Positions 54,211-57,876 of a stretch of DNA of 64,000 nt are shown here, piece by piece (within the stretch, counting starts at the first letter, position 1; every line of letters starts with the position of its first letter). The notes beneath the pieces are model-generated. The model did no database searches and was not told the DNA's origin. It saw only the letters and a list, made by a program, of their open reading frames with translations. Where the stretch lies: the NCBI RefSeq assembly GCF_003018255.1, contig NZ_CP027440.1, one strand, 5' to 3'. The DNA comes from Escherichia coli (GTDB taxonomy: Bacteria > Pseudomonadota > Gammaproteobacteria > Enterobacterales > Enterobacteriaceae). A program made the translations under genes and the position numbers.

Positions 54211-55443
54211 ATGTCGTCATTTGATTACCTGAAAACTGCCATCAAGCAACAGGGCTGCACGCTACAGCAGGTCGCTGATGCCAGCGGTATGACCAAAGGG
54301 TATTTAAGCCAGTTACTGAATGCCAAAATTAAAAGCCCCAGCGCGCAAAAGCTGGAGGCGTTGCACCGTTTTTTGGGGCTTGAATTTCCCCGACAGAAGA
54401 AAACCATTGGTGTCGTATTCGGTAAGTTCTACCCGCTGCATACCGGACATATCTACCTTATCCAGCGCGCCTGTAGCCAGGTTGACGAGCTGCATATCAT
54501 TATGGGCTTTGACGATACCCGCGACCGCGCGTTGTTCGAAGACAGCGCCATGTCGCAGCAGCCCACGGTGCCGGATCGTCTGCGCTGGTTATTGCAAACC
54601 TTTAAATATCAGAAAAATATCCGTATTCATGCTTTCAATGAAGAGGGCATGGAGCCATATCCGCACGGCTGGGATGTATGGAGCAACGGCATCAAAAAGT
54701 TTATGGCTGAAAAGGGGATCCAGCCGGACCTGATCTACACCTCGGAAGAAGCCGATGCGCCACAGTATATGGAACATCTGGGGATCGAAACGGTGCTGGT
54801 CGATCCGAAACGCACCTTTATGAGTATCAGCGGTGCGCAGATCCGCGAAAACCCGTTCCGCTACTGGGAATATATCCCCACTGAAGTGAAGCCGTTTTTT
54901 GTGCGTACCGTGGCGATCCTTGGCGGCGAGTCGAGCGGTAAATCCACCCTGGTAAACAAACTTGCCAATATCTTCAATACCACCAGTGCGTGGGAATATG
55001 GTCGCGATTATGTCTTTTCACACCTCGGCGGTGATGAGATCGCATTGCAGTATTCCGACTACGATAAAATCGCGCTGGGACACGCACAATACATTGATTT
55101 TGCAGTGAAATATGCCAATAAAGTGGCGTTTATCGACACTGATTTTGTCACTACCCAGGCGTTCTGCAAAAAGTACGAAGGGCGGGAGCATCCGTTCGTG
55201 CAGGCGCTGATCGATGAATACCGTTTTGATCTGGTTATCTTGCTGGAGAACAACACCCCTTGGGTGGCGGATGGTTTACGCAGCCTCGGCAGTTCGGTGG
55301 ATCGCAAAGAGTTCCAGAACTTGCTGGTGGAGATGCTGGAAGAGAACAATATCGAATTTGTGCGGGTTGAAGAAGACGATTATGACAGCCGTTTCCTGCG
55401 CTGCGTGGAGCTGGTGCGGGAGATGATGGGGGAGCAAAGATAA
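54211..55443 (+). CDS. nadR: Trifunctional NAD biosynthesis/regulator protein NadR
   Basis: MSSFDYLKTAIKQQGCTLQQVADASGMTKGYLSQLLN (HTH), NMN adenylyltransferase domain (GKFYPLHTGH) and kinase P-loop (GGESSGKST). Confidence 0.95.
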   Translation: MSSFDYLKTAIKQQGCTLQQVADASGMTKGYLSQLLNAKIKSPSAQKLEALHRFLGLEFPRQKKTIGVVFGKFYPLHTGHIYLIQRACSQVDELHIIMGFDDTRDRALFEDSAMSQQPTVPDRLRWLLQTFKYQKNIRIHAFNEEGMEPYPHGWDVWSNGIKKFMAEKGIQPDLIYTSEEADAPQYMEHLGIETVLVDPKRTFMSISGAQIRENPFRYWEYIPTEVKPFFVRTVAILGGESSGKSTLVNKLANIFNTTSAWEYGRDYVFSHLGGDEIALQYSDYDKIALGHAQYIDFAVKYANKVAFIDTDFVTTQAFCKKYEGREHPFVQALIDEYRFDLVILLENNTPWVADGLRSLGSSVDRKEFQNLLVEMLEENNIEFVRVEEDDYDSRFLRCVELVREMMGEQR

Positions 55444-55485
55444 TCATCTTTATAAGATGTTGAGTGGGATTACTGATTCAAAAGT

Positions 55486-55518
55486 GTACTTAGTACTCCA
55501 TTTTGGTGTACAATGTAC
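55486..55518. promoter_or_regulatory. Two palindromic operator-like sites overlapping the putative toxin-antitoxin promoter
   Basis: GTACTTAGTAC (55486-55496) and GTACAATGTAC (55508-55518), perfect 5-1-5 inverted repeats 22 bp apart centre to centre; TACAAT (55509-55514) is a candidate -10. Confidence 0.4.
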
Positions 55519-55534
55519 CTTCCAGGGAGGGGTA

Positions 55535-55867
55535 ATGGGTAAGGCGATAATATTTATAGAGACGCCAATGTTTACGCGTCAGATCAAGCAGATTGCAACC
55601 GATGATGAATTAAAGGAATTACAAAAAGAACTCATCGGAACTCCCGATAAAGGTGATCTCATTCAGCAGACTGGTGGATTGCGTAAAGTCCGAATGGCTG
55701 CGGGTTCACAGGGAAAAAGTGGCAGTGTCAGAATAATTTACTTTCTGGCGACGGAAGAGATTATTTATTTGATTATGGCCTATCCGAAAAATGCCAAAGA
55801 TAGTCTGACAGATACGGAAAAAGCTCAACTAAAGAAGTTGACGAAACTGCTCAAAGGCGAGATATAA
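55535..55867 (+). CDS. RelE/ParE-superfamily toxin (HigB-/Gp49-like 'addiction module killer'), 110 aa
   Basis: ATG at 55535 preceded by GGGAGGGG; MGKAIIFIETPMFTRQIKQI...GGLRKVRMAAGSQGKSGSVRIIYFLATEEIIYLIMAYPKNAKDSL resembles RelE/HigB-type toxins; toxin-first gene order. Confidence 0.6.
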   Translation: MGKAIIFIETPMFTRQIKQIATDDELKELQKELIGTPDKGDLIQQTGGLRKVRMAAGSQGKSGSVRIIYFLATEEIIYLIMAYPKNAKDSLTDTEKAQLKKLTKLLKGEI

Positions 55868-55868
55868 A

Positions 55869-56153
55869 ATGAGTTTTTTTGATGAGTTGAAAACCTCTCT
55901 GGAAGAGGCTGTCGAGATTAAACAAGGTTTAAAAGAACCTGCACGGGTGACCCGCTACGAAATTGCGGATGTTAAAGCTATTCGTGAGCAACTCAACGTT
56001 TCGCAAAGTGAGATGGCAAAAGCTCTGGGAACCAGTGTGGATACCATTAAAAGCTGGGAATCGAAGCGAAGAAATCCTACGGGATTGGCTGCAAAAGTAC
56101 TTGCCACAATTAAAGAAAATCCTGACTTTTTCCGGGAACTTGCCTCCCATTAA
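55869..56153 (+). CDS. XRE-family HTH antitoxin (HigA-like), 94 aa
   Basis: ATG 1 nt after the toxin stop; HTH segment QSEMAKALGTSVDTIKSWESKRRNP. Confidence 0.6.
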   Translation: MSFFDELKTSLEEAVEIKQGLKEPARVTRYEIADVKAIREQLNVSQSEMAKALGTSVDTIKSWESKRRNPTGLAAKVLATIKENPDFFRELASH

Positions 56154-56166
56154 TCATTTAACTAAT

Positions 56167-56196
56167 ACCGGATGCGATGCTGGCGCGCCGCATCCG
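56167..56196. repeat. REP element
   Basis: CCGGATGCGATGCTGGCGCGCCGCATCCGG palindrome between the antitoxin gene and the ettA 3' end. Confidence 0.5.
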
Positions 56197-56208
56197 GCAT
56201 TTTACGCA

Positions 56209-57876
56209 TTACTTCGCAATACGCTTGTACTTGATACGCTTCGGCTCCAGCGCGTCTGCGCCCAGCGTGCGTTTCTTGTACTCTTCGTACTCGGTAAAGT
56301 TACCTTCGAAGAACTCAACTTTACCCTCATCCTGGTAATCCAGGATGTGCGTGGCGATACGGTCGAGGAACCAACGGTCGTGCGAGATAACCATCGCGCA
56401 GCCCGGGAACTCCAGCAGGGCGTTTTCCAGCGCGCGCAGGGTTTCGATATCCAGGTCGTTGGTTGGTTCGTCGAGCAGCAGCATGTTGCCGCCAACTTGC
56501 AGCAACTTCGCCAGATGCAGACGACCGCGCTCACCGCCGGAGAGTTCGCCAACGCGTTTACCCTGATCAACCCCTTTAAAGTTAAAGCGGCCAACGTAGG
56601 CGCGGCTTGGCATCTCGGTGTTGCCGATTTTCATGATATCCAGCCCGCCGGAAACTTCTTCCCAAACGGTTTTGCTGTTATCCATTGAGTCACGGAACTG
56701 ATCAACCGATGCCAGTTTCACCGTTTCACCCAAAGTGATGGTGCCGCTGTCCGGCTGTTCCTGACCAGAGATCATACGGAACAGCGTCGATTTACCCGCA
56801 CCGTTCGGACCGATGATCCCGACGATCGCCCCTTTCGGGATCGAGAAACTCAGGGAGTCAATCAGCAGACGATCGCCATAGGATTTACGCAGATTGCTGA
56901 CTTCCAGCACTTTGTCGCCCAGACGCGGTCCAGGTGGAATAAACAGTTCGTTGGTTTCGTTACGTTTCTGATATTCGGTGCTGTTCAGTTCTTCAAAGCG
57001 CGCCAGACGTGCTTTACCTTTCGACTGACGGCCTTTAGTACCTTGACGTACCCACTCCAGCTCTTTCTCAATCGACTTACGACGCGCAGCTTCTTGTGAA
57101 GCTTCCTGCGCCAGACGCTGATCTTTCTGCTCCAGCCAGGAGGAGTAGTTACCTTCCCACGGAATACCTTCACCGCGGTCCAGTTCGAGGATCCAGCCCG
57201 CAACGTTATCGAGGAAGTAACGGTCGTGGGTAATCGCCACAACGGTGCCTTCGAAGTCGTGCAGGAAGCGTTCCAGCCAGGCCACGGATTCGGCATCCAG
57301 GTGGTTGGTCGGTTCGTCGAGCAGCAGCATGTCTGGTTTTTCCAGCAGCAGGCGGCACAACGCCACGCGACGACGCTCACCACCGGAGAGGTTAGCGATT
57401 TTCGCGTCCCAATCCGGCAGACGCAGCGCATCCGCCGCACGCTCCAGCTGAACGTTCAGGTTGTGACCGTCGTGAGCCTGAATGATCTCTTCCAGACGGC
57501 CCTGTTCAGCGGCCAGTTTGTCAAAATCGGCATCCGGATCGGCGTACAGTGCATACACTTCATCCAGGCGTTTCAGGGCGTTAACCACTTCAGAAACCGC
57601 TTCTTCAATGGACTCACGCACGGTGTGTTCCGGGTTCAACTGCGGTTCCTGCGGCAGATAACCAATCTTGATATCCGGTTGCGGACGCGCTTCGCCTTCG
57701 ATGTCTTTATCAATGCCCGCCATAATGCGCAGCAGGGTGGACTTACCCGCGCCGTTCAGACCCAGGACACCAATTTTTGCCCCAGGGAAGAAACTCAGAG
57801 AGATGTTTTTCAAAATATGACGTTTCGGCGGAACAACTTTGCCGACACGATGCATGGTATAAACGAATTGAGCCAC
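56209..57876 (-). CDS. ettA: Energy-dependent translational throttle protein EttA (YjjK), ABC-F ATPase
   Basis: 555 aa with two ABC cassettes (GLNGAGKST, GPNGAGKST); GTG start preceded by GAGG. Confidence 0.95.
   Translation of the reverse strand: MAQFVYTMHRVGKVVPPKRHILKNISLSFFPGAKIGVLGLNGAGKSTLLRIMAGIDKDIEGEARPQPDIKIGYLPQEPQLNPEHTVRESIEEAVSEVVNALKRLDEVYALYADPDADFDKLAAEQGRLEEIIQAHDGHNLNVQLERAADALRLPDWDAKIANLSGGERRRVALCRLLLEKPDMLLLDEPTNHLDAESVAWLERFLHDFEGTVVAITHDRYFLDNVAGWILELDRGEGIPWEGNYSSWLEQKDQRLAQEASQEAARRKSIEKELEWVRQGTKGRQSKGKARLARFEELNSTEYQKRNETNELFIPPGPRLGDKVLEVSNLRKSYGDRLLIDSLSFSIPKGAIVGIIGPNGAGKSTLFRMISGQEQPDSGTITLGETVKLASVDQFRDSMDNSKTVWEEVSGGLDIMKIGNTEMPSRAYVGRFNFKGVDQGKRVGELSGGERGRLHLAKLLQVGGNMLLLDEPTNDLDIETLRALENALLEFPGCAMVISHDRWFLDRIATHILDYQDEGKVEFFEGNFTEYEEYKKRTLGADALEPKRIKYKRIAK

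Follow-up and report, generated by a model that had tools for sequence, protein, structure and literature searches.

Autorepression of type II toxin-antitoxin operons by way of palindromic operators that lie over the promoter is textbook, and among the described systems the closest to the locus studied here is higBA2 of V. cholerae. There, a dimer of the antitoxin HigA2 binds its operator at 25 nM and represses in vivo, protecting 24 bp that contain TGTACGC-N5-GCGTACA and reach from after the -35 element over the -10 element (PMC11006873). More specifically, HigA2 reads bases via R68, E71, N72 and R77, and its disordered tail raises the affinity 15-fold (PMC11006873). Crystal structures on DNA exist both for HigA2 by itself and for its tetramer with the toxin (Hadzi et al. 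2024, PMC11006873; PDB 8A0W/8A0X); the title of 8A0X names the HigB2-HigA2 tetramer on operator DNA, and 5JAA and 5J9I are further HigBA2 entries. The toxin family concerned, PF06296, is the HigB2 family of a 2025 survey, with toxin-first gene order and ribosome-dependent mRNA degradation (PMC11980606).

Here we describe a related locus in a 64-kb stretch of Escherichia coli DNA, which we call the window throughout. The genomic neighbourhood is E. coli chromosome with the order radA-nadR-[two small genes]-ettA, and a pair of palindromes is placed between nadR, which ends at 55443, 43 bp upstream of the pair, and the toxin-nadS operon formed by the two small genes. The distal palindrome, GTACTTAGTAC (GTACT-T-AGTAC, 55486-55496, centre 55491), and the proximal palindrome, GTACAATGTAC (GTACA-A-TGTAC, 55508-55518, centre 55513), are both perfect 5-1-5 inverted repeats when read in the sequence. 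An inverted-repeat finder with a 6-nt seed missed these 5-1-5 palindromes, which were verified by eye and by pattern search; a repeat finder lists the two as copies of a 13-nt direct repeat, GTGTAC-N3-GTAC, at a distance of 22 bp. The preliminary description of this DNA had reported two 11-bp inverted repeats with a GTAC core and centres 22 bp apart, placed just upstream of a toxin Shine-Dalgarno sequence, the second overlapping a -10-like TACAAT hexamer. Reading the sequence bears out this layout in full: the centres 55491 and 55513 are 22 bp apart, the Shine-Dalgarno GGAGG (55526..55530, + strand) and the ATG at 55535 follow directly, and TACAAT (55509-55514) lies inside GTACAATGTAC.

Both palindromes are rare in the window. 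GTACWWWGTAC occurs twice in the 64 kb, both times at the toxin promoter, against 0.04 expected, and at least two copies were found in 0/100 shuffles. The looser pattern GTACNNNGTAC (GTAC-N3-GTAC) also occurs only twice, as this same pair, against 0.26 expected, with two copies in 1/100 shuffles.

The first small gene (55535..55867, + strand) encodes a 110-aa toxin of the HigB2-type RelE fold, as judged from Pfam, PDB and RefSeq matches. Its ATG at 55535 is the start also given by RefSeq, where the product is named 'RelE/ParE family toxin'. The protein matches Pfam PF06296 (HigB2/'RelE' BECR-fold) at 40.2 bits, for a cut-off of 27, and the PDB chains of V. cholerae HigB-2 at E = 8e-17 over residues 6-102 (phmmer). 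The Pfam scan returned PF06296 and a sub-threshold Gp49, without a match to PF05015 or PF09907, and PADLOC gave the toxin no defence-system assignment. The second gene (55869..56153, + strand) starts 1 nt after the toxin stop codon (55865-55867) and encodes a 94-aa antitoxin, annotated as nadS by RefSeq, with an N-terminal toxin-binding tail and a C-terminal XRE-type helix-turn-helix (HTH) domain according to NCBIfam, a HigA-2 profile match and an AlphaFold model. Its product matches the equivalog NCBIfam family NadS (NF041265) over residues 1-94 of 94, at 182.5 bits for a cut-off of 60. The NadS profile aligns NadS residues 3-92 with HigA-2 residues 6-102 of V. cholerae (E = 1.7e-9). In the AlphaFold model the N-terminal third is of low confidence (pLDDT 55-66 for residues 1-30) and is followed by a confident HTH domain of four to five helices (pLDDT 70-85). 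The top six Foldseek matches of this model in the PDB are all HigA2, on which the C-terminal domain superposes at 1.0-1.4 A. Because toxin and antitoxin match HigB-2 and HigA-2 in sequence, profile and structure model, the locus is, by homology of both proteins, a HigBA2-type toxin-antitoxin operon; the toxin-first, antitoxin-second order is also found in most related loci. Between the convergent nadS and ettA genes lies a GC-rich hairpin, CCGGATGCG...CGCATCCGG followed by CATTTTA (56168..56204, no strand assigned), which is probably their shared bidirectional terminator. A terminator scan of 55300-56300 did not call this hairpin, whose 12-nt loop exceeds the 8-nt limit of the scan, and K-12 has kept it.

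We consider it very likely that the two palindromes are NadS autorepression operators at the toxin promoter, NadS being encoded 350 bp downstream. For a homologue of HigA2, an operator at this promoter position is expected, because the V. cholerae operator spans the same position. Written as 17-bp sites, the predicted distal operator (55483..55499, no strand assigned) reads AGT-GTACTTAGTAC-TCC with its core at 55486-55496, and the predicted proximal operator (55505..55521, no strand assigned) reads GGT-GTACAATGTAC-CTT with its core at 55508-55518. The proximal site is the one conserved family-wide; the distal site matches the family consensus GGTGTAC-N3-GTACACC at 4/6 flank positions.

This consensus comes from a comparison of related loci, for which one genome per species was scanned, yielding 80 loci with toxin relatives of 66-82% identity. 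They come from many Gammaproteobacteria, belonging to Enterobacterales, Halomonadaceae, Aeromonas, Pseudomonas, Methylococcaceae, Nitrosomonas and others, and lie in unrelated contexts, many of them on plasmid-sized contigs. A perfect GTAC-N3-GTAC is present within 120 bp upstream of the toxin start in 71/80 loci, and in the loci that carry a perfect site the proximal copy sits at -27 to -53 from the start. The 9.6 kb upstream of the toxin genes hold 77 perfect sites, versus 5 in the other 244 kb. Four of these 5 belong to Lelliottia and Enterobacter cloacae loci and lie directly upstream of the nadS ribosome-binding site. The remaining 5/80 loci (Rosenbergiella, Tatumella) have site variants with 1-2 mismatches, for example GGGTACTATGTAACCC. 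Over 77 unique sites, the family consensus is the 17-bp palindrome GGTGTAC-TAT-GTACACC, in which the GTAC cores are invariant or nearly so and the flanks less strictly kept (left G 64%, G 83%, T 82%; right A 44%, C 79%, C 55%). Across the same loci, with three antitoxin sequences (L003, L005, L070) left out, the NadS segment round the recognition helix, LGTSxDTIKSWExxRRNPTGLAAKVL, is essentially invariant, and the recognition region of NadS is invariant wherever the GTAC core is invariant. The family loci are mutually related, and the counts and p values given here overstate their independence.

The Lelliottia and Enterobacter cloacae loci are an observation in their own right. They carry GGTGTACTATGTAC in the toxin-nadS intergenic region (L024:1840-1895, also L026, L032 and L037) and a terminator-like hairpin, instead of a promoter, before the toxin. 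In these loci nadS may be transcribed alone from an autoregulated promoter. The motif is here found upstream of nadS, and therefore follows nadS. In addition, a toxin-nadS module of about 72% DNA identity is present on 165 plasmid records, of which 134 are predicted mobilizable and one, the 4.9-Mb NZ_CP134663.1, is evidently a chromosome; many of the plasmids are of 5-6 kb and come from Klebsiella, Escherichia, Yersinia, Salmonella and Leclercia.

More distant relatives let the antitoxin and its palindrome be followed together. NadS relatives at 36-53% identity were taken from a representative library and their upstream DNA was searched for palindromes. NadS-like recognition helices go with GTAC-type sites: SSVDTIKSWES (P0148/L086) with GGGGTACATTGTACC, TSVDTIKSWES (P0143/L088) with GGTGTACTTAGTACCCC and VTVDTVSSWEQ (P0132/L099) with GGTACTTTGTAC. 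The helix VSTDLVRSWET (P0166/L091, L091:430-520) goes with TGTACTGCGTACA and TGTACAGGGTACA, 29 bp apart, ASVSLVQSWEL (P0184/L100) with GCGTACAGGGTACGT, and VSPSLVEAWEQ (P0181/L096) with TCTTAC-ACA-GTAAGA, which sits between TTGACT and TATAAT. V. cholerae-like helices go with the V. cholerae operator class TACGC-N5-GCGTA: VSVRTLQNWEQ (P0183/L090) with ATACGC-CTCTG-GCGTAT, VSVATLRNWEQ (P0208/L095) with TACGC-CATTG-GCGTA and VSVKTLQNWEQ (P0240/L103) with TCCGC-CATTG-GCGTA. For LSIDTLQDWEQ (P0232/L102) the palindrome is TATACGG-CTTTG-CCGTATA. Three helix classes can thus be paired with a candidate site, D-T-I-K-S-W-E with GTAC-N3-GTAC, T-L-[QER]-N-W-E with TACGC-N5-GCGTA and L-V-E-A-W-E with TTAC-N3-GTAA, and in these comparisons the palindrome at or near the promoter changes when the recognition helix changes. 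Such covariation is a prediction for an operator read by an HTH protein, not for a host-factor site or a chance feature. The helix/operator pairs form a natural series for studying specificity shifts of XRE-HTH proteins.

Two further observations concern the relatives themselves. The L091 relative, 43% identical, has GC-rich site centres and a spacing of 29 bp versus 19-22 bp. Four proteins of the representative library (P0121, P0123, P0127 and P0129), 525-4162 aa long, contain between 7 and 15 segments in tandem, each of which shares about 32-36% identity with the HTH domain of NadS; XRE-HTH repeat arrays of this length are unusual.

The preliminary description had read the palindromes as operators of an antitoxin, or of a toxin-antitoxin complex, over the toxin promoter, and this reading is supported by three independent lines of evidence. 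The motif travels with the module in about 80 unrelated contexts and follows nadS; the proteins are homologous to V. cholerae HigB-2/HigA-2, whose operator was footprinted and crystallised at the same promoter position; and the palindrome sequence changes with the recognition helix in more distant relatives. Literature searches returned no match for a NadS-type operator sequence (the operator strings gave only unrelated primers), and found no experiment on NadS or this E. coli module under NadS, PF06296/COG4737/DUF1044 or the RefSeq accessions.

Two other explanations of the palindromes have to be weighed against NadS operators. The sites could be those of a host factor that has nothing to do with the module, such as NadR, or be palindromes that arose by chance; nadR is indeed nearby and GTAC palindromes are short. 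However, the module keeps the motif on small plasmids and in Halomonas, Aeromonas, Pseudomonas, Methylococcaceae and Nitrosomonas chromosomes where nadR is not a neighbour, the motif follows nadS where the promoter has relocated, and chance predicts 0.04-0.26 occurrences per window. The NadR box, TGTTTA-N6-TAAACA, is unlike the GTAC palindromes. Because the motif is portable with the module, a host factor or chance is excluded for practical purposes, and we attach a negligible probability to it. Alternatively, the palindromes could act in RNA, the distal region of a nadR read-through transcript pairing with the toxin Shine-Dalgarno and ATG and so blocking toxin translation. No terminator was called between nadR and the toxin in the scan of 55300-56300, and 55444-55540 (+ strand) folds at -27.8 kcal/mol (z = -2.1), with ACUUAGUACUCC...UUUUGG pairing with CCAGGGAGGGGUAAUGGGU. 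The signal is modest, though, since 6/200 shuffles fold as well. The pairing moreover uses E. coli-specific flanks and cannot account for the conservation of the GTAC cores throughout the family, in many other contexts and at distances from the start codon that range over 27-53 nt; on its own, each palindrome forms a stem of just 4-5 bp closed by a loop of 1-3 nt. We regard this reading as improbable; RNA pairing at the distal palindrome could have at most an additional local role, relevant only to nadR read-through transcripts.

Read as NadS operators, the palindromes also point to a candidate promoter. The predicted -10 hexamer is TACAAT (55509..55514, + strand; 5/6 matches, TACNNT signature), within the proximal operator, and the inferred -35-like hexamer is TGTACT (55485..55490, + strand; 3/6 to TTGACA), in the left half of the distal operator, with an 18-bp spacer between them. 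Transcription would start near 55521, leaving a leader of about 14 nt. The centre of the family site is asymmetric, with T at the third central position in 70/77 unique sites and A at the symmetric first position in 22/77. Because this asymmetry favours T at the third position, TACNNT is best taken as a -10 hexamer that has A2 and T6, the critical bases, and points towards the toxin. At a distance of 16-18 bp, the best match to a -35 element scores on average 3.49/6 on the upstream side versus 2.74/6 on the mirror side (Wilcoxon p = 8e-7, which is approximate as the loci are related to each other). Centre asymmetry and the better upstream -35 together predict a -10 element inside the operator, reading towards the toxin. 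A sigma-70 consensus scan of 55300-56300 did not call the TGTACT/TACAAT promoter, whose consensus score is 8/12, and the promoter model therefore rests on comparative evidence. In the other two-site loci TGTACA or GGTACA stands at the -35 position.

Under this model, a NadS dimer would bind a 17-bp site with the recognition helix of one HTH on either of its GTAC-containing halves. NadS occupancy over the -10 element (proximal site) and the -35-like TGTACT (distal site) would keep RNA polymerase off and, because the two sites hold these elements, would repress the toxin-nadS operon. By analogy with V. cholerae, a toxin2-antitoxin2 tetramer probably binds as well as the antitoxin alone. Loss of NadS would free the promoter, and NadS would be resynthesised. 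In its outline this is a standard autoregulated promoter.

How many sites such a promoter needs is a separate question. The preliminary description presented the pair as the arrangement expected for cooperative autorepression by an antitoxin dimer or a toxin-antitoxin complex; for this family a pair is not what is to be expected, since most members have one site. In 13/81 loci the proximal site is accompanied, at 19-22 bp, by another with no more than 2 mismatches; the other 68/81 have a single site. With at most 1 mismatch, a second site at this distance is found in 10/81 loci, for a background of 0.3%. The two-site loci are those of E. coli, five Serratia, three Enterobacter, Buttiauxella, L007, L055 (Aeromonas) and L076, the second sites of L055 and L076 being of the 2-mismatch kind only. 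When two-site promoters, including those of Serratia, Enterobacter and Buttiauxella, are aligned, conservation is confined to the two palindromes and the GGT that precedes them, spacer and flanks vary, and TGTACA or TGTACT, from the left half of the distal palindrome, falls at the expected -35 position. Judged by the loci compared, the E. coli operator pair is a minority, derived arrangement. For Serratia inhibens, a clean 21-bp deletion was considered as the cause of its single site and rejected, the alignment showing only an absent or degenerate distal site.

The two sites may bind NadS independently, the proximal one accounting for essentially all repression and the distal one being a recent, weakly selected copy that serves as the -35 element. 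The prevalence of single sites speaks for this, as do the single operator of V. cholerae (PMC11006873) and the behaviour of P. vulgaris HigA, whose binding to its operators O1 and O2 is non-cooperative (Hill coefficient 0.87; PMC12266136), so that two adjacent operators need not mean cooperative binding. Spacing is variable, at 19 (2 loci), 20 (1), 21 (7) and 22 bp (3), and not strictly in helical phase, and in one E. coli allele the distal core is mutated. Against independent sites, 10/13 spacings cluster at 21-22 bp, the distal palindrome is perfect in the commonest E. coli alleles sampled and kept across Serratia and Enterobacter, and the structural neighbour C.Esp1396I binds its natural operator as a tetramer of two dimers, according to the PDB title. 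On balance, we see independent binding as a real possibility, though one that we would not expect to prevail. A different reading is that an ancestral single operator was doubled about two helical turns upstream in E. coli, Serratia and some Enterobacter, with both hexamers built from half-sites (-35 TGTACT/TGTACA, -10 TACNNT), possibly giving cooperative or toxin:antitoxin-ratio-dependent repression by two dimers; the 22-bp spacing would put two NadS dimers on roughly the same helix face. We offer operator doubling with cooperativity as a tentative and rather doubtful proposal. If true, operator copy number would be an evolvable set-point control of a widespread plasmid and chromosomal HigBA2/NadS module.

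Variation within E. coli bears on the same promoter, which is present in 672/5426 complete genomes, always chromosomal and at the same position. Three divergent alleles carry SNPs at 55479, 55504, 55521 and 55533, outside the cores, the exception being strain E371 (L085), in which the distal core is mutated to GTACTTAGCAC (equivalent to window 55494) and the proximal site is intact. E. coli may be able to do without the distal site, given the mutated core in E371 and the single site of most family members. K-12-type genomes lack about 395 bp, through a deletion that has taken away the promoter and the two palindromes and has left approximately the last nine codons of the toxin. What is left in K-12 (L002:1455-1860, compared with window 55400-56260) is a 55-aa nadS stump that retains only the first approximately 38 NadS residues, the toxin-binding tail, and has REP-like sequence in place of the HTH domain. 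This stump is translated, according to a transposon-reporter study (PMC12350097), and one may speculate that it might still neutralise plasmid-borne HigB2-type toxins. The comparison shows that K-12 has lost the promoter, both operators, the toxin and the NadS HTH domain, and offers a clean background for reporter tests. The concrete operator predicted for NadS, GGTGTAC-TAT-GTACACC with GTAC-N3-GTAC invariant, applies to an antitoxin that annotation places in thousands of enterobacterial genomes, and also on small mobilizable plasmids, of which there are more than 130.

Several known systems resemble this one in part. MqsR-MqsA is likewise a toxin-first operon with palindromic operators, and the C-terminal HTH domain of NadS is weakly related to that of MqsA: Pfam MqsA_antitoxin (PF15731) matches the C-terminal part only, at 22.7 bits, below the cut-off of 30, and the structural TM-score on target 3FMY is 0.86. 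NadS also scores below threshold against TIGR03830 (38.6, cut-off 61.8). Unlike MqsA, NadS is without a zinc-binding N-terminal domain, and the toxin families differ; membership in MqsR-MqsA was rejected on these family scores and the absent zinc-binding domain. The MqsA palindrome, ACCT-N(2-4)-AGGT, is unrelated to the NadS site. The controller (C) proteins of restriction-modification systems, such as C.Esp1396I and C.Kpn2I, are small XRE-HTH dimers that appear among the structural neighbours of the NadS model at ranks 9-20, and C.Esp1396I has been crystallised as a tetramer on its natural operator (PDB title). Unlike NadS, C proteins have no toxin partner and both activate and repress, and at 21-28% identity the homology shown is that of the HTH fold only. 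The C.Esp1396I operator consists of two short palindromes whose centre is AT-rich and 3-4 bp long.

In the conditional-cooperativity class (RelBE, Phd-Doc, CcdAB), the toxin bridges several neighbouring operators at defined toxin:antitoxin ratios; in the NadS family two adjacent sites are present in 13/81 loci and one in 68/81. HigB-HigA of P. vulgaris and E. coli K-12 shares with our locus a reverse-order toxin-antitoxin operon, an HTH antitoxin (in our locus a predicted dimer) and a pair of adjacent palindromic operators, predicted here, that overlap the promoter (PMC12266136). It differs in that the toxin here belongs to PF06296, not PF05015/PF09907, and in the architecture of the antitoxin; membership in the P. 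vulgaris-type HigB-HigA group was rejected, as the toxin matches neither PF09907 nor PF05015.

The closest likeness is to V. cholerae higBA2, with which the locus shares the toxin-first order, an antitoxin made of an N-terminal tail and an XRE-HTH domain, homology of both proteins and, in E. coli at the sequence level only, an inverted repeat in the -35 to -10 interval. Unlike V. cholerae, which has one operator reading TGTACGC-N5-GCGTACA, E. coli has two predicted ones of the type GGTGTAC-N3-GTACACC, and in the alignment R68, E71, N72 and R77 of HigA2 correspond to D58, K61, S62 and R67 of NadS. We considered whether the GTAC of the V. cholerae operator is the GTAC found here and rejected it: the tetranucleotides are 6 bp further apart in V. 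cholerae, where the contacted bases are ACGC, and what relatives with helices of the V. cholerae type conserve is TACGC-N5-GCGTA rather than GTAC. In the V. cholerae repeat, GTAC is out of register and probably coincidental. Superimposing the two 17-bp operators centre on centre makes positions 3-6, those contacted in V. cholerae, coincide with T-G-T-A of the NadS site, which are among its most conserved bases, and the same dimer geometry is plausible for NadS and HigA2. Taken in this way, the NadS site would add to what is known of V. cholerae HigA2 a second class of DNA specificity, in which the half-sites are spaced differently.
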